This document shows, piece after piece, positions 12,479-17,459 of a stretch of DNA of 44,136 bases (positions are counted from its first letter, which is position 1; the number at the start of each line of letters is the position of its first letter). A program made the position numbers and the translations under genes. Location of the stretch: NCBI GenBank assembly GCA_013151185.1, contig JAADIU010000187.1, positions 2,535 to 46,670 on the forward strand, read 5' to 3'. This DNA comes from Planctomycetota bacterium. Lineage in GTDB: Bacteria; Planctomycetota; Phycisphaerae; UBA1845. The notes beneath the pieces were generated by a model, which was given only the letters and a program-made list of their open reading frames with translations, was not told the origin of the DNA and searched no databases.

Positions 12479-13168
12479 ATGGCTCACACATACGAATTCC
12501 CAAGACCCGCACTGACCGTCGACATCGTCATGTTCGCCCTCGACCGACACGACCTCAAAGTCATGCTGATCGAACGCGACCTCGAACCGTTCGCTGGGCG
12601 ATGGGCGTTGCCGGGCGGTTTTGTCCGCGTCGACGAAACCCTCGATGAAGCGGCTCGTCGCGAACTCGAAGAAGAGACGGGACTACGAGGCATTTTCCTG
12701 GAGCAGCTCTACACGTTTGGTGATTTGGATCGCGATCCGCGTGAGCATGTCGTCACTGTGGCCTATTACGCCTTGGTCAACCTCGAAGGCCACAACATCA
12801 GAGCCAGCACGGACGCTCGCAATGCCGCATGGTTCGCCATCAGTGATTTGCCACGACTCGCGTTTGACCATGAGCGCATTCTCGACGTCGCGCACGAACG
12901 CCTCTGCGGGAAGGTGCGATACCAGCCCGTCGGTTTCGAGCTACTTCCATCAAAGTTTCCGCTGCGACAGCTTCAGGATTTGTACGAAACTATTCTTGAT
13001 CGCGAGCTCGATAAGCGCAACTTCCGAAAGAAACTCCTCAGCATGGACATCCTGGTTGAGCTCAACGAGATCGAGAAAGACGTAGCGCACCGCGCTGCTC
13101 GGTTATATCGCTTCGACAAGAGAAAATATGACCGCCTGACCAAGCAAGGCTTCAACTTCGAGCTTTGA
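12479..13168 (+). CDS. nrtR: NrtR-family regulator (N-terminal Nudix ADP-ribose-binding domain plus C-terminal winged-helix DNA-binding domain)
   Basis: 229 aa. The Nudix box is intact ([24 protein letters not shown]). The N-terminal stretch [12 protein letters not shown] and the C-terminal segment [37 protein letters not shown] are typical of NrtR. Confidence 0.88.
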
Positions 13169-13175
13169 AAGAGCG

Positions 13176-14234
13176 ATGGAACTGAACCAACACATAGCCG
13201 GATGCATCCTCGGCACCGCCGTCGGAGATTCGATCGGTTTGCCTCGTGAGGGGATGTCTCGGCGCCGGGCACTTCGCGTCTTTGGTGATGGCCCATTGCA
13301 CCATGCGCTACTCGGTTCACGCGGTATGTGCAGTGACGACACCGAGCACACCACCATGGTTGCGCAGGCAGTGATTTCCACCGGAGGGGATCCAGCTTCC
13401 TTCGCCCGCAATCTTGCCGGTCGGCTACGTTGGTGGCTGGCCAGGCTTCCAGCGGGCGTAGGGTTCGGAACCCTTCGGGCCTGCTCGAAACTCTGGCTTG
13501 GTTTTGGATCTTCAAAGAGTGGGGTTCCAAGCGCCGGCAATGGCCCCGCGATGCGTAGCGCGTTGCTCGGAATTGTCGCGGAAGATCGCGAACACATGGT
13601 ACTACTGGTGCGAGAATCGACAAGGCTTACACACACAGATCCCCGAGCGGAACAGGGCGCGACTATCGTTGCAATGGCCTCGTATGTGATCACGCACGAA
13701 CCGCAACTGGCAACCGAGGCATACACGTTGGTCGAGATGCTTGCCGGATGCTCATCGGACTCGGAATTACGCAGTGCCATGAAATCAATCGAAGGCGCCC
13801 TGGAGAAGAACCTGACGGCTGAGGCGTTTGCGAATCGGTTGGGATTGACCAATGGCGTTTCCGGGTTTGTGAATCACACGGTTCCAGTTGCGATTTACTG
13901 CTGGCTGAGGCATCGCGATTCGTTTCGCAACGCGGTGGAGGCAGCCGTGAGACTAGGCGGAGACACGGACACGGTCGGCGCGATCGTCGGTGCGATCATG
14001 GGAACTGAAGTCGGCCCCGACGCGTTGCCAGAGGAATGGGTTGATGGATTGGCCGAGTGGCCCGCATCGGTTCCATGGATGAGGAACTTGGCGGAGGAAT
14101 TGAAAGAGTGCGTGCAGAATGGCGAACCGAGTATCCCGACATCGTGTTCTTCGGTTTTCCTACTGCTTCGCAACGTGTTCTTCATGGTTGTTGTGATGGC
14201 GCACGGAATTCGAAGGCTTCTGCCACCATATTGA
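13176..14234 (+). CDS. ADP-ribosylglycohydrolase (ARH/DraG family) with a hydrophobic C-terminal tail
   Basis: 352 aa, starting 7 nt after the nrtR stop. Family motifs are GTAVGDSIGLPREG, CSDDTEHTTM and GGDTDTVGAIVGAIMG. The tail is SSVFLLLRNVFFMVVVMAHGI. Confidence 0.9.
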   Translation: MELNQHIAGCILGTAVGDSIGLPREGMSRRRALRVFGDGPLHHALLGSRGMCSDDTEHTTMVAQAVISTGGDPASFARNLAGRLRWWLARLPAGVGFGTLRACSKLWLGFGSSKSGVPSAGNGPAMRSALLGIVAEDREHMVLLVRESTRLTHTDPRAEQGATIVAMASYVITHEPQLATEAYTLVEMLAGCSSDSELRSAMKSIEGALEKNLTAEAFANRLGLTNGVSGFVNHTVPVAIYCWLRHRDSFRNAVEAAVRLGGDTDTVGAIVGAIMGTEVGPDALPEEWVDGLAEWPASVPWMRNLAEELKECVQNGEPSIPTSCSSVFLLLRNVFFMVVVMAHGIRRLLPPY

Positions 14235-14281
14235 TAGGCGAGGGTGCCGCCTGCGAATGCAGAACTCAGAGGAAAGCAGTC

Positions 14282-15169
14282 ATGAATCGAAATCAACGCA
14301 AGGCAGTTGCCGCCGAATCGCTCGAGATCATCGAACGGGGGTACTACACGAACGCTGCGGGGAAGCGGGTCGAACTTTCTTCAGCCATTGCGGACGCGGT
14401 CGAGGGTACGCGACTGTTCACACCGGCAATGCTGGAGCGATGTGTCGCCGCCCGTTTGGCTGATGCAGGTAGCGCGAACACTACGATCACTGTCGAAAAT
14501 GAAACCACGCTTTCAGCCGCACGCCGCTTGGCATATGACCGTGGGCTCAAGCCCGTTCTCTGCCTGAATTTTGCCTCGGCGAAGAATCCGGGTGGGGGAT
14601 TTCTCGGCGGGAGTCAAGCTCAAGAGGAGAGCCTGGCGCGGTCCTCCGCTCTCTATCACACTTTGCAGGGTGCGCCCGGATACTATGAGAGCAACCGCGC
14701 TTGCGGAACGGCCCTCTACACGGATCACATGATCCTCAGTCCGTGCGTGCCGGTCTTTCGTGGGGACAACAGCGACCTGCTCGATGAACCGTATTCCGTA
14801 TCCTTCCTGACCGCACCCGCAGTTAACACCGGAGCCTTGCTTCGAAACAACCCAGATCAAGCGCCGCTGGTTACGTCGACGATGACTCGGCGCATGGAGA
14901 TGGTTTTTGCGTTGGCATCTGAGCAAAACTATCGCCATCTGATCCTTGGGGCTTGGGGTTGCGGTGTGTTTGGCAACCAGCCCGAGCAGATTGCGGAGTT
15001 GTTCGCGCGTTTTCTACTCGACGACGCTCGATTCGCGCAGCAATTCGAAACCGTCGTGTTCGCTGTTCTGGATTGCAGTAGAGACGAACAGATCATCCGC
15101 CCATTTCGCGCGTGGTTCGATCGCGCCGCTCGTCCATTCCCAACATCGCATTCGGGAGGCCAGTCATGA
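14282..15169 (+). CDS. Bacterial-type poly(ADP-ribose) glycohydrolase (macrodomain, DUF2263/TIGR02452-like)
   Basis: 295 aa from ATG 14282, with GAGGAAAG 6 nt upstream. The track ORF's 5' extension from 14057 overlaps the ARH gene. PARG signature GGG-X7-QEE is present (NPGGGFLGGSQAQEES). ILGAWGCGVFGN is a typical macrodomain diphosphate-binding loop. Confidence 0.87.
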   Translation: MNRNQRKAVAAESLEIIERGYYTNAAGKRVELSSAIADAVEGTRLFTPAMLERCVAARLADAGSANTTITVENETTLSAARRLAYDRGLKPVLCLNFASAKNPGGGFLGGSQAQEESLARSSALYHTLQGAPGYYESNRACGTALYTDHMILSPCVPVFRGDNSDLLDEPYSVSFLTAPAVNTGALLRNNPDQAPLVTSTMTRRMEMVFALASEQNYRHLILGAWGCGVFGNQPEQIAELFARFLLDDARFAQQFETVVFAVLDCSRDEQIIRPFRAWFDRAARPFPTSHSGGQS

Positions 15170-16371: not shown

Positions 16372-16384
16372 GAGGGCGTTTCCT

Positions 16385-16909
16385 ATGAGCCAACTCGAAT
16401 CAGTTTGTGATGGGCAATTCCTTCGTCTGGTTAGACGAGGGAATTGGGAGTTCGTGACTCGAAAGAAGGCGAGCGGAGTCGTCGCCATTGTGGCCATTAC
16501 CCCTGAAAACAAAGTCGTTCTCGTTGAGCAGAATCGGCCACCTGCCGGCGGACGGGTCATCGAACTACCTGCCGGCTTGGCCGGTGACGAGATCGAAAGT
16601 GAATCGCTAGTGGTAGCCGCACAGCGAGAGCTTGTTGAGGAAACAGGCTACATAGCAAAGTCCTGGTCGGAACTCATCTGCGGCCTGTCGTCCTCGGGAC
16701 TGACCGATGAGGCAGTGACGTTCTTCCACGCGAAGAACCTGTGCCGCGTCGGAAGCGGTGGCGGAGTTGCAAACGAGTCAATCAGAATTCATGAGGTGCA
16801 CGTTGGTCATGTTGCCACATGGATCAATGAACAAATTCGAATCGGAATGATGATCGACCTCAAATTGTTGGCTGGTCTGTTTGCCGCGCAGTTGTGGGGG
16901 GACATATAG
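16385..16909 (+). CDS. Nudix hydrolase, ADP-ribose pyrophosphatase-like
   Basis: 174 aa from ATG 16385, with AGGAGG 9 nt upstream. Canonical Nudix box G-X5-E-X7-REUXEEXGU (GDEIESESLVVAAQRELVEETGY). The layout (VAIVAI..VVLVEQNRPPAGGRVIELPAG) is typical of ADPR pyrophosphatases. Confidence 0.82.
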   Translation: MSQLESVCDGQFLRLVRRGNWEFVTRKKASGVVAIVAITPENKVVLVEQNRPPAGGRVIELPAGLAGDEIESESLVVAAQRELVEETGYIAKSWSELICGLSSSGLTDEAVTFFHAKNLCRVGSGGGVANESIRIHEVHVGHVATWINEQIRIGMMIDLKLLAGLFAAQLWGDI

Positions 16910-16910
16910 A

Positions 16911-17459
16911 ATGACTCCCAACGAGTTGAAGAAGATCAGCAAGTCGCTCAGCTATGTATTACGGCACCGACCCGACTCAATTGGAATCGAACTGGAACAT
17001 GCCGGTTGGATCGACGTGCGTACGTTGCTCGTTGCGTTTGATCGATCAGGGCAAGTGGTTCCGCGTCAAACGCTTGAGCAGGTGGTCGCGAACAACACCA
17101 AGCAGAGGTTCGAGTTTAGCTCAGACGGCATGAAGATCCGCGCGCGGCAAGGGCACTCACTCGATATCGACCTGTCCTACGAACCCGTCACACCACCAGA
17201 CGTTCTCTATCACGGGACAGCCAAGCGCAACCTCGAGGCGATCTTGGCTGAAGGACTCTCGAAAATGCGTCGCCACCATGTGCATATGTCGGTCGACGAG
17301 GAAACAACGTATGCCGTGGCTATGCGCCACGGAAAGCCTGTCATCCTGGCGATTAGTGCGTTGCGGATGCACAACAATAGATATGCGTTCTTCGTAACGG
17401 GAAATGACGTTTGGTTAACCGATCAAGTTCCTCCAGATTATCTGACGATTGTTGAATAG
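16911..17459 (+). CDS. kptA: RNA 2'-phosphotransferase Tpt1/KptA (NAD+-dependent ADP-ribosyl transfer fold)
   Basis: 182 aa, with the ATG 1 nt after the preceding stop. Family hallmarks are KSLSYVLRHRPDSIGIELEHAGWIDV, RFEFSSDGMKIRARQGHS, LYHGT, HHVHMS and VWLTDQVPPDYL. Confidence 0.92.
   Translation: MTPNELKKISKSLSYVLRHRPDSIGIELEHAGWIDVRTLLVAFDRSGQVVPRQTLEQVVANNTKQRFEFSSDGMKIRARQGHSLDIDLSYEPVTPPDVLYHGTAKRNLEAILAEGLSKMRRHHVHMSVDEETTYAVAMRHGKPVILAISALRMHNNRYAFFVTGNDVWLTDQVPPDYLTIVE

Follow-up and report, generated by a model that had tools for sequence, protein, structure and literature searches.

The locus examined here raises the question of whether six adjacent genes form a self-contained module for reversible ADP-ribosylation, as a preliminary description had proposed, or whether they belong to a wider regulon of NAD metabolism. 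The window, meaning the whole stretch of planctomycete DNA that was analyzed (44,136 nucleotides), contains six open reading frames (G1 to G6) on the plus strand between positions 12479 and 17459, each beginning with ATG and closed by a proper stop codon. The consecutive junctions measure 7, 47, −4 (ATGA), 13, and 1 nt, in exact agreement with the preliminary description.

All six family assignments made earlier were upheld by profile or structure searches. The first gene, nrtR (G1, 12479–13168, 229 aa), encodes a repressor with a Nudix sensor and a winged-helix domain, identified by profile matches to NUDIX (77 bits) and NrtR_WHD (97 bits); its Nudix box is intact, and the protein is 79–88% identical to more than 100 of the closest cluster representatives. 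It is followed by an ARH/DraG-type ADP-ribosylglycohydrolase (G2, 13176–14234, 352 aa), which covers the whole ADP_ribosyl_GH model (203 bits), carries all of the metal-site motifs GDSIG, SDDT, and GGDTDT, and ends in a hydrophobic, conserved C-terminal tail with the last residues RRLLPPY. The macrodomain protein G3 (14282–15169, 295 aa) is a bacterial-type PARG, matching PARG_cat_microb (163 bits), TIGR02452 (285 bits), and the Thermomonospora curvata PARG 3SIG (239 bits) and carrying the PARG signature GGGFLGGSQAQEE. G4 (15166–16371, 401 aa) encodes a soluble "mini-vault" protein resembling the major vault protein (MVP). G5 (16385–16909, 174 aa) is a Nudix hydrolase of the ADP-ribose pyrophosphatase type, with an intact Nudix box and ADP-ribose pyrophosphatases as its best PDB relatives (60 bits); the type thus stood, but the earlier term "canonical" was too strong, because the score lies under the curated NCBIfam cut-offs. 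The last gene, G6 (16911–17459, 182 aa), encodes a KptA/Tpt1 RNA 2'-phosphotransferase of the ART superfamily (PTS_2-RNA, 167 bits; NF002014, 240.3 against a cut-off of 239). As had been noted before, searches of the window turned up neither a PARP or sirtuin gene nor one for NAD salvage.

Directly upstream of nrtR, two tandem 21-bp NrtR boxes of the TTAGTGT-N7-ACACTAA type were found. The distal box, TTCGTGTATGAATTACGCTAT (12425–12445, unstranded), agrees with the palindrome at 11 of 14 half-site positions and sits 54 nt upstream of the nrtR start codon, while the proximal box, TAAGTGTAGATAAAACACTAA (12448–12468, unstranded), agrees at 13 of 14 positions, lies 31 nt before nrtR, and has the GT-N7-AC core published for NrtR (PMC2330246). 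Both overlap a promoter-like site on the plus strand (12420–12448; TTGACT, a 17-nt spacer, and TATTCT), which is a consensus match only, with one match against 2.5 expected in the region, and is reported because of this overlap. The two boxes were the only NrtR-box matches in the window, against 0.3 expected. Across the related loci L007–L086, 113 sites matched at 12 or more of the 14 positions, compared with 1.0 in shuffled sequences, and nearly all lay 20–90 nt ahead of an nrtR, pncB, or pncA gene or of an MVP-like gene that stands alone; the palindrome precedes such genes in about 80 related loci, and the tandem partner box in relatives shows the same +54/+31 spacing. These boxes bear out the NrtR-headed arrangement: the six genes are a real operon under the ADP-ribose-sensing repressor NrtR, with co-transcription and repressor binding predicted from the sequence.

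Gene order was compared among 57 loci of other species, all well flanked and each containing an MVP-like gene. The order on which the preliminary description had staked its operon was kept in relatives, and it usually read pncB-nadE-nrtR-[ARH]-pncA-[PARG/ARH/KptA/NADAR]-MVPlike-Nudix-[KptA]. Co-directional NrtR was present in 47 of the 57 loci, PncA in 40, ARH in 36, Nudix in 34, PncB in 33, KptA in 29, NadE in 28, and PARG in 16; NADAR occurred in 8, and prsA was sometimes part of the cluster. The most frequent neighbor of the MVP-like gene was PncA upstream and Nudix downstream. The recurrent core consists of NrtR, PncA, the MVP-like gene, and Nudix, with KptA and PARG as accessory genes. 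Because the co-directional cluster was found again in dozens of species and its operator is conserved, chance adjacency does not account for it. The nearest relatives of the window locus retain only NrtR-ARH-MVPlike or MVPlike-Nudix, without KptA and PARG.

Since the usual order includes pncB, nadE, and pncA, the window operon is probably a trimmed form of a conserved operon type, repressed by NrtR, that serves NAD+ turnover and recycles ADP-ribose; it would represent a reduced version of a regulon combining Preiss-Handler salvage with ADP-ribose recycling. As no NAD-salvage gene lies in the window and the nearest relatives are trimmed too, the recycling loop is not encoded locally. The labels "atypical" and "self-contained" could not be maintained, given the frequencies of pncA, pncB, and nadE in the relatives' cluster and the NrtR regulons already listed by Rodionov et al. 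2008 (PMC2330246). These include the Blastopirellula "#pncB-nrtR-pncA; #nadE" regulon, the ADP-ribose-only Streptomyces "#nrtR1-draG-SCO1765" regulon, placed under "reversible protein ADP-ribosylation", and an unexplained NrtR-regulated nrtX-nrtY pair.

The NAD-salvage I regulons of that list share with the window locus the regulator family, the 21-bp palindrome with its GT-N7-AC core, and the phylum, and relatives of the window locus have exactly pncB-(nadE)-nrtR-...-pncA. In contrast, pncA, pncB, and nadE have disappeared from the window copy or moved elsewhere, and the published description ends at pncA, with the downstream PARG, ARH, MVP-like, Nudix, and KptA genes unmentioned. The Streptomyces regulon likewise places NrtR directly ahead of an ADP-ribosylglycohydrolase without NAD-biosynthesis genes, but it belongs to a different phylum and lists no PARG, KptA, or ADPRase. 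NrtX may correspond to the SEED entry "NrtR-regulated hypothetical OrfX, Band 7 protein domain"; in that case it would be a counterpart of G4 of the SPFH type.

In the NrtR family, binding of ADP-ribose to the Nudix domain leads to de-repression. The recycling operon proposed here would be held off by NrtR on the two tandem boxes overlapping the promoter, and at this locus too, free ADP-ribose released by NAD+-consuming reactions would reach the Nudix domain of NrtR and relieve repression. The ARH and PARG enzymes would remove ADP-ribose from proteins, from poly- or terminal ADP-ribose, and possibly from ADP-ribose-capped nucleic-acid ends, after which the Nudix enzyme would convert free ADP-ribose to AMP and ribose-5-phosphate, combining detoxification with removal of the inducer in a negative feedback. 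KptA would act as an optional NAD+-consuming enzyme of RNA ends, whose by-products, nicotinamide and ADP-ribose-1'',2''-cyclic phosphate or ADP-ribosylated RNA, may enter the same clean-up route. In fuller operons, PncA, PncB, NadE, and PrsA would remake NAD+ from the freed nicotinamide and ribose-5-phosphate; the pncA, pncB, nadE, and prsA genes of this genome would have to be located elsewhere.

A self-contained module, in which KptA would mark 5'-phosphorylated RNA or DNA ends or yield ADP-ribose cyclic phosphate, with PARG and ARH as erasers, Nudix as scavenger, NrtR as sensor, and the vault-like protein as a cage, appears unlikely. Published TRPT1 work (PMC6582358, PMC11833690) does describe ADP-ribosylation of 5'-phosphorylated RNA by KptA/TRPT1 and reversal of this mark by PARG-type macrodomains and ARH3, and an RtcB RNA ligase gene adjoins the operon in one relative. 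PARG was almost never found without KptA (14 of 15 PARG-containing loci also carried it; Fisher p = 0.0013, with no phylogenetic correction), and a functional tie between the two is therefore plausible. However, both are accessory genes outside the recurrent core and both are missing from the nearest relatives, and a Pfam search of the six genes revealed neither a 2H nor any other cyclic phosphodiesterase. KptA was accompanied by pncA in 28 of 28 other well-flanked NrtR loci, a pattern that links KptA with NAD salvage and not with a writer/eraser pair standing on its own.

A role in defense or repair, in which the hydrolases would free host molecules from ADP-ribose that phage or toxin ADP-ribosyltransferases had attached, is quite improbable. 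The predicted "ARG-centric" systems of Iyer, Burroughs and Aravind 2022 (PMC9503650, section 3.8), some with WYL instead of Nudix-HTH regulators, resemble the window-type operons in their NrtR-like repressor and ARG hydrolase, in optional Macro and NADAR genes (the latter also seen in the related loci) with no cognate toxin ART, in their occurrence in planctomycetes, and in the proposed logic of ADP-ribose-induced de-repression. Nevertheless, the window lacks the rhodanese-phosphatase, TY-chaperone, ARPP, and restriction-endonuclease effector genes of those systems, PADLOC returned zero system matches, and the proteins are conserved and slowly evolving (median identity 73% for NrtR and 57% for the MVP-like protein, the second most conserved operon product). 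The steady synteny with pncA, pncB, and nadE indicates metabolism instead, and the anti-phage role suggested earlier is thus unsupported. No vault-like protein is mentioned in PMC9503650.

G4 gave no Pfam match above threshold (Band_7, E = 0.046). Its AF2 model (pLDDT 81.8) shows about three beta-repeats, an SPFH domain (shoulder), and a 109-residue helix, and the best ten Foldseek matches in the PDB were all major vault protein (E from 1.5e-13 to 1e-9), with erlin, flotillin, and stomatin ranking below the vault shells (about 1e-7). Longer family members pass the Pfam Vault_3 threshold (P0125, 44 bits; P0123, 30 bits), and when a 60-sequence profile was aligned to human MVP with hhalign, residues 106–239 fell on human 477–611 (95% probability, E = 3.5e-8), so that the vault-like assignment was confirmed. 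The human segment includes the "keyhole loop", which binds NAD+/ADP-ribose in human vaults. In this remote alignment, in which the numbering of the human sequence agrees with PMC12280208 at the 13 residues compared, R138/K140/P142/Y143/D155 of G4 correspond to R504/K506/P508/H509/D521, which line the NAD+/ADP pocket (PMC12280208). K-x-P and P-D-Q are kept across the family, while the human pocket residues R507, R511, W545, and K573 are not conserved. It is proposed that G4 may form a soluble SPFH/vault-type ring or cage via its long helix and may bind an ADP-ribose/NAD+ moiety in a basic pocket homologous to the human keyhole loop; it would then serve to buffer or store ADP-ribose/NAD+, or would bring the recycling enzymes together as a scaffold.

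The MVP-like gene is not a fixed part of the operon: one genome has a complete operon without it, and when sampling started from NrtR, it was present in just 2 of 20 metagenome loci with good flanks. That it is a passenger, a generic SPFH scaffold (e.g., for membrane or protease organization) with no ADP-ribose or NAD role, is nonetheless very unlikely: a stand-alone sub-family in Myxococcota and Gemmataceae does lack NrtR boxes, some members being fused to the c-di-GMP-binding MshEN domain, but the NrtR cluster holds the gene in 47 of 57 species loci from at least six phyla, stand-alone copies in Gimesia (boxes 100 and 123 nt upstream) and four other loci retain NrtR boxes, no transmembrane anchor is predicted in G4, unlike in classical SPFH proteins, and its structure is matched best by vault shells, which bind NAD+/ADP-ribose at the shoulder. 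The MVP-like protein genuinely belongs to the NrtR regulon.

The eukaryotic vault combines MVP with PARP4 and the TIR-like NADase TEP1, has an NAD+/ADP/ADP-ribose pocket in the SPFH shoulder (PMC12280208; bioRxiv 10.64898/2026.05.01.722283), and in native human vaults carries ADP-ribose at the shoulder (bioRxiv 10.64898/2026.05.01.722283). G4 resembles its shell in the succession of beta-repeats, SPFH shoulder, and long helix, in lacking a membrane anchor, in a basic loop at the keyhole position that reads R-x-K-x-P with P-D after it, and in an association with NAD+-consuming and ADP-ribose-producing enzymes, which for G4 is one of genomic context. In contrast to eukaryotic MVP (about 890 aa, nine repeats), G4 has 401 aa, about three repeats, and no cap-ring region; its partners are hydrolases and KptA rather than PARP or TEP1, and a search for vault RNA found none. 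Full-length bacterial MVP homologues of about 820 aa from Myxococcales, Cytophagales, Oscillatoriales, and some phages are more than 50% identical to eukaryotic MVP, with no NAD or NrtR context reported (bioRxiv 10.1101/872010, 10.1101/2023.11.10.566534). The G4 family is likewise bacterial, with vault repeats, shoulder, and coiled coil, but it is short, has diverged much further from MVP (about 18% identity in Foldseek alignments), and is centered on PVC bacteria, with members in many protists as well.

No publication describing a link of the MVP-like family to an NrtR/NAD context was found. The new element of the locus is this miniature, uncharacterized relative of the vault-shell protein, which recurs in an NAD context across several bacterial phyla.

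The six genes of the operon (12479-17459) were recovered as co-directional ORFs on the forward strand: nrtR (G1, 12479-13168), the ADP-ribosylglycohydrolase (ARH) gene (G2, 13176-14234), PARG (G3, 14282-15169), the MVP-like gene (G4, 15166-16371), a Nudix gene (G5, 16385-16909) and KptA/Tpt1 (G6, 16911-17459). ORF listing and inspection gave an ATG start codon in 6/6 genes, a purine-rich Shine-Dalgarno-like sequence 5' of most of them, and spacers of 7, 47, -4 (ATGA), 13 and 1 nt, in agreement with the coordinates and spacers of the preliminary description. Profile searches backed five of its six family calls outright (G1, G2, G3, G5 and G6); for G4, no Pfam match rose above threshold, and the assignment was made by structure comparison and profile-sequence hhalign.

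For G2, the ADP_ribosyl_GH model (PF03747) was matched over its full length (model positions 1-287, 203 bits), the acidic di-metal-site motifs GDSIG, SDDT and GGDTDT were all found, and the closest solved structures were MJ1187, T. thermophilus ARH, ARH3 and DraG. Judged by these features, G2 is a full-length protein of the ARH/DraG type and a predicted ADP-ribosylglycohydrolase. G3 matched PARG_cat_microb (PF10021) with 163 bits and TIGR02452 with 285 bits, carried the macrodomain catalytic signature GGG-X6-8-QEE (GGGFLGGSQAQEE, from residue 104), and gave 239 and 206 bits with the solved PARG structures of Thermomonospora curvata (3SIG) and D. radiodurans, respectively; it is a predicted bacterial-type PARG. 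The NUDIX match of G5 includes a complete Nudix box (GDEIESESLVVAAQRELVEETGY). Its best PDB relatives were ADP-ribose pyrophosphatases (ADPRases; 8wv3, 1v8i, 1mk1 and NUDT5) at no more than 60 bits, and it scored 37.9 against the curated NCBIfam ADPRase model TIGR00052, the cut-off of which is 79.6; it also fell under the cut-offs of the NudE and NudF NCBIfam models. G6 contained a full-length PTS_2-RNA domain (PF01885, 167 bits) and lay just above the cut-off of the KptA equivalog NF002014 (240.3 against 239, positions 1-180), with the conserved catalytic motifs RH, RARQGHS, HGT and HVH. By family membership it is a Tpt1/KptA RNA 2'-phosphotransferase, with predicted activity on 2'-P or 5'-P ends.

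At the C-terminus of the ARH following nrtR (window 14130-14234, residues about 320-352), a conserved hydrophobic tail was observed (…LLLRNxFFxxVVxxHGxRRLLPPY-stop, hydropathy 2.07). It was kept across phyla and missing from the paralogous ARH copies of the same operons. It may serve to anchor the protein in a membrane or as a docking peptide. A role of the tail (…RRLLPPY) in docking cargo to the MVP-like protein was considered and dropped because the tail does not track the MVP-like gene, being present also in loci L089 and L158, both of which lack that gene.

G1 combines a Nudix domain (PF00293, 77 bits, residues 13-135) with NrtR_WHD (PF21906, 97 bits, residues 152-212); against the NCBIfam NtrR equivalog it reached 175 bits, the clade-specific cut-off being 400. 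The predicted architecture, an N-terminal Nudix-fold effector domain with a winged-helix domain at the C-terminus, is that of NrtR. Motif scanning placed a proximal NrtR box at 12448-12468 (TAAGTGTAGATAAAACACTAA) and a weaker distal copy at 12425-12445, 23 bp upstream of the proximal one. These two were the only operator matches in the whole window (0.3 expected), and both overlap the promoter-like site TTGACT-17-TATTCT. The 21-bp palindrome with a GT-N7-AC core, located upstream of nrtR, is as described for NrtR operators, and both boxes are predicted NrtR sites. Relief of DNA binding by ADP-ribose (ADPR) is a trait of the NrtR family and would, by analogy, apply to G1.

Corresponding boxes were found in related loci from other genomes. 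Across L007-L086 (1.13 Mb), the palindrome TTAGTGT-N7-ACACTAA occurred at 113 sites with at least 12/14 matches, compared with 1.0 in shuffled sequences. Nearly all sites lay 20-90 nt 5' of nrtR, pncB or pncA, and the rest preceded a stand-alone MVP-like gene; before nrtR, the same tandem pair was typical (+54/+31). The stand-alone MVP-like gene of Gimesia panareensis had two boxes, and those of L028, L050, L056 and L069 had one each. Since the boxes are conserved and also stand before such isolated copies, the MVP-like gene is a member of the NrtR regulon and not a mere neighbour.

NrtR identity was 79-88% over about 120 of the closest cluster representatives among the matches listed, with a median of 73% across the phylum-spanning genome loci, and the protein encoded at window positions 12479-13168 keeps a complete Nudix catalytic box. 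Given this conservation and the complete box, the window NrtR may still act as a hydrolase, and horizontal spread of the cluster is possible.

Gene neighbourhoods were examined at four loci obtained by exact-protein look-up and at 80 species-level genome loci; the 80 were scanned with two query sets, the proteins of the window and a relative's salvage enzymes, and counts were taken from the 57 loci with enough flank. The gene order recurred co-directionally as pncB-(prsA)-nadE-nrtR-[ARH]-pncA-[PARG / ARH / KptA / NADAR]-MVPlike-Nudix-[KptA / ARH] in Planctomycetota, Verrucomicrobiota, Victivallales, Armatimonadota, Eisenbacteria, Thermoanaerobaculia, Omnitrophota and Sericytochromatia, so that conservation extends across phyla. 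NrtR was present at 47/57 loci, PncA at 40, ARH of any type at 36, Nudix at 34, PncB at 33, KptA at 29, NadE at 28, PARG at 16, NADAR at 8 and PrsA at 5, and the MVP-like gene stood alone at 8/57. The commonest neighbours of the MVP-like gene were PncA immediately upstream and Nudix downstream. Further accessory genes were noted in related operons (L089 10770-11231, L005 5581-6416 and L003 11770-12561), namely Nuc_deoxyri_tr2 (nucleoside 2-deoxyribosyltransferase-like), a eukaryote-type PARG_cat_C, a 263-aa ORF without a family assignment, and NADAR with a conserved 79-aa ORF behind it.

No homologues of pncA, pncB or nadE were found within the 44-kb window, whereas the NrtR NAD-salvage-I regulon has all three under NrtR. 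The preliminary description had concluded from the lack of a NAD-salvage gene that this NrtR regulon is atypical; the observation stands for the window, but the conclusion does not extend to the relatives, where pncA, pncB and nadE are present at 40, 33 and 28 of the 57 loci. The nearest relatives of the window (G4 identity 77%) kept only NrtR-ARH-MVPlike or MVPlike-Nudix, and the window is therefore considered a reduced variant.

The association of the MVP-like gene with NrtR is asymmetric: most short MVP-like genes lie in NrtR regulons, and many NrtR regulons have no such gene. This follows from its presence in only 2/20 well-flanked metagenome loci when approached from the NrtR side, from a 7.5-Mb planctomycete genome carrying the full operon without it, and from the copies of Myxococcota and Gemmataceae, which are stand-alone and without NrtR boxes, some of them being fused to MshEN. 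The stand-alone sub-family without an NrtR box (Gemmataceae, an 'Alcaligenaceae' MAG and the homologue P0183; L076 6993-9221 and L085 7383-9218) has an N-terminal MshEN domain (61-63 bits). MshEN is a c-di-GMP-binding module, and by analogy the fusion would be a second link of the MVP-like scaffold to a nucleotide ligand.

The flanks of the operon appear unrelated to NAD. Upstream, on the reverse strand, lie a 1638-aa DUF5724/DUF4132/DUF7737 protein (3266-8182) and a 1126-aa protein without a Pfam match (8802-12182). Downstream, on the forward strand, a 3651-aa ORF judged TPR-rich by eye (18778-29733) is followed by a MoxR AAA_3 ATPase and its DUF58/vWA partner (31468-33415). The interval of approximately 1.3 kb that separates KptA from the giant ORF (17460-18777) contained weak ORFs only, such as 17878-18300, which had no Pfam match; no Rfam match was found there, and the terminator scan gave no convincing terminator after KptA, its matches being at background level. 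Rfam and tRNA scans of the window detected a single RNA gene, tRNA-Ser(CGA) on the reverse strand (38426-38514), and turned up nothing resembling vault RNA, nor any other ncRNA, in the neighbourhood of the operon.

Taken as a whole, the findings partly support the initial interpretation. The operon is under NrtR control, it is conserved, and it centres on ADP-ribose. It belongs, in pared-down form, to the known class of NrtR NAD-salvage and ADPR regulons and is not the new self-contained system initially envisaged; the part without an apparent earlier description is the mini-vault protein under NrtR regulation.

The strongest competing reading is that of a self-contained reversible ADP-ribosylation module, with KptA as writer and the hydrolases as erasers. 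The literature on which it was built is real: that work describes ADP-ribosylation of 5'-P RNA by Tpt1/KptA and its reversal by PARG-type macrodomains and ARH3. KptA was present in 14/15 PARG loci (p=0.0013 in Fisher's test, without phylogenetic correction), which supports a functional tie between the two. PARG would either erase a KptA mark, or its macrodomain would process the ADPR-phosphate by-products of KptA, as happens in the KptA-2H-Macro-Nudix chain reviewed in PMC9503650. On the other side, pncA was also present in 28/28 other well-flanked NrtR loci having KptA, and the recurrent core consists of NrtR, PncA, the MVP-like gene and Nudix, with KptA and PARG as accessory members. For these reasons, the self-contained module is placed below a regulon of NAD turnover and ADP-ribose recycling.

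The environment of some related operons should also be recorded. A large DUF4011/AAA_11/AAA_12/MTES_1575 helicase abuts the operon in relatives, that of L006 additionally carrying a WGR domain, which is also found in PARPs. In L089, an RtcB RNA ligase adjoins the operon as well (regions concerned: L089 2792-3925 and 1-1495, L006 13734-19238). These neighbours hint at a nucleic-acid repair connection for KptA.

Two defence-related readings fared less well. The ARG-centric anti-ART systems (Iyer et al. 2022) pair an ARG hydrolase with a Nudix/WYL-HTH regulator and have no ART; a phosphatase, a chaperone and variable effectors usually accompany the pair, and the systems evolve fast. The window operon resembles them in having an ARG and a Nudix-HTH protein, but its KptA falls within the ART superfamily, it lacks a phosphatase, chaperone and nuclease, and its proteins are strongly conserved; it does not fit the description of the ARG-centric systems. 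The anti-phage role raised in the preliminary description is unsupported, since the PADLOC-DB search of the six proteins returned only a weak generic Nudix match for NrtR (PDC-S07, 31 bits), with the other five proteins unmatched and no defence system assigned, and the operon proteins are strongly conserved.

Attention then centres on G4, a protein of 401 aa with 880 homologues in the protein collection, mostly unnamed or hypothetical. It matched Pfam Band_7 with E=0.046 and 14.2 bits (cut-off 23.6) and did not match the Pfam Vault or MVP_shoulder domains. MVP was not recovered by PDB sequence searches, whether the query was G4 alone, a 23-sequence profile or one of the longer relatives P0125 and P0175, and the link was made only by structure comparison and profile-sequence hhalign. 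The AlphaFold2 model, built with 23 homologues (mean pLDDT 81.8), comprised a beta-rich part from residue 1 to about 150 (approximately 3 repeats), an SPFH-like alpha/beta domain at about 155-256 and a single helix at 258-366. With this model, the best ten Foldseek matches in the PDB were major vault protein shells (E 1.5e-13 to 1e-9), among them human vaults with PARP4 and with ADP; the next matches, at about 1e-7, were erlin, flotillin, stomatin and HflK/C. Vault_3 was weakly matched by 9/23 relatives of G4, its gathering score was passed by the longer relatives P0125 (44 bits) and P0123 (30 bits), and MVP_shoulder was touched by one relative. A 60-sequence profile (Neff 4.9) aligned by hhalign with human MVP at 95% probability and E 3.5e-8 (G4 106-239 to human 477-611); the human sequence used was not a database record, and its numbering fits 13/13 residues named in PMC12280208.

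No transmembrane segment or hydrophobic N-terminal anchor was predicted in G4 (maximum hydropathy 1.30). The original call of a soluble MVP-like SPFH/coiled-coil protein thus proved correct, on the grounds of the fold, the Vault_3 and hhalign evidence, and the lack of a hydrophobic anchor. As modelled, G4 has the MVP layout, in which vault beta-repeats lead into an SPFH shoulder and a long cap helix and a membrane anchor is lacking. Classical SPFH/Band 7 proteins (stomatin, flotillin, HflK/C) differ in having Band_7 over threshold and an N-terminal anchor, both of which G4 lacks, and they ranked under MVP in the structural comparison. The actinobacterial NrtX would, going by SEED role names, be a Band-7 protein. 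Canonical MVP has nine repeats, about 850-900 aa and a cap-ring region, in contrast to the 401 aa and about 3 repeats of G4. Given this size and repeat number, and the lack of a Pfam Vault or MVP_shoulder match and of a PDB sequence match, G4 represents a distinct short MVP-like family and is not an MVP orthologue. A role of G4 as replacement for the missing NadD step was rejected on its fold.

An exhaustive profile search for the family yielded 1617 cluster representatives, of which 414 reached E <=1e-30. Unexpectedly, many members were eukaryotic (Amoeba proteus, Pellita, Endostelium, Mastigamoeba, Paulinella, Polykrikos, Thecamonas and Cymbomonas, the last with two paralogues), with 30-47% identity to the window G4; the proteins noted were P0132, P0142, P0164, P0202, P0203, P0245, P0264 and P0288. 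The short MVP-like family is common to bacteria and protists and distinct from canonical MVP. In the papers examined, the bacterial MVP homologues are long forms of approximately 820 aa from gliding bacteria and phages, for which no NAD context was reported. SPFH or vault proteins are not mentioned in the paper on ARG-centric systems (PMC9503650), and full-text literature searches pairing vault/SPFH with NrtR or nicotinamidase gave nothing relevant; an earlier mention is possible, likeliest in de Souza & Aravind 2012 (Mol Biosyst).

To our knowledge, the function of vaults has remained unknown since their discovery. In human MVP, Lodwick et al. 2025 (PMC12280208) reported bound NAD+ and ADP at a site that lies behind a basic 'keyhole loop', between the SPFH shoulders of neighbouring subunits, and named the pocket residues R504, K506, R507, P508, H509, R511, L517, D521, F522, W545, P565, K573 and R437. 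A 2026 preprint placed ADP-ribose in the same pocket in native brain vaults and described TEP1 as a TIR-like NADase inside the vault. In the remote hhalign alignment, G4 residues R138, K140, P142, Y143 and D155 correspond to human R504, K506, P508, H509 and D521; several human pocket residues are not conserved in G4, and the family signature is [RK]-K-x-P…F-x-K-L-R-x-x-P-D-Q. Binding of ADPR or NAD+ by G4 fits the genomic context well and is held as a hypothesis with the balance tilted somewhat against it, because the human sequence was not a database record, several pocket residues are unconserved and the alignment is remote. A closed multimeric cage with NAD+/ADPR binding in a shoulder pocket is putative, the keyhole-loop residues R138, K140, P142 and D155 being partly conserved. 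The broader proposal, that G4 belongs to an undescribed 'mini-vault' family of bacteria (PVC-centred) and many protists with an ancestral role in binding or compartmentalising ADP-ribose/NAD+ during NAD turnover, is likewise held as less likely than not.

The results extend a known regulon type: in Planctomycetota and allies, NrtR controls NAD salvage together with an ADPR clean-up toolkit of ARH, PARG, NADAR, ADPRase and KptA, which is useful for annotation and for the question of why bacteria retain KptA. The occurrence of a short MVP-like protein in ADPR-responsive NAD-turnover operons of several phyla provides independent comparative-genomic support for the link between vaults and NAD/ADP-ribose. 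G4 is a small, soluble and potentially bacterially tractable protein for testing ligand binding, assembly and physiological role. If the mini-vault proposal were true, a function both ancient and conserved would underlie the NAD+/ADP-ribose pocket of the eukaryotic vault and its resident NAD consumers (PARP4 and the TEP1 NADase), and experiments on a bacterial operon of simple genetics could directly address the purpose of vaults. The main interest lies in this vault-NAD/ADP-ribose connection, which is testable in a simple bacterial system.
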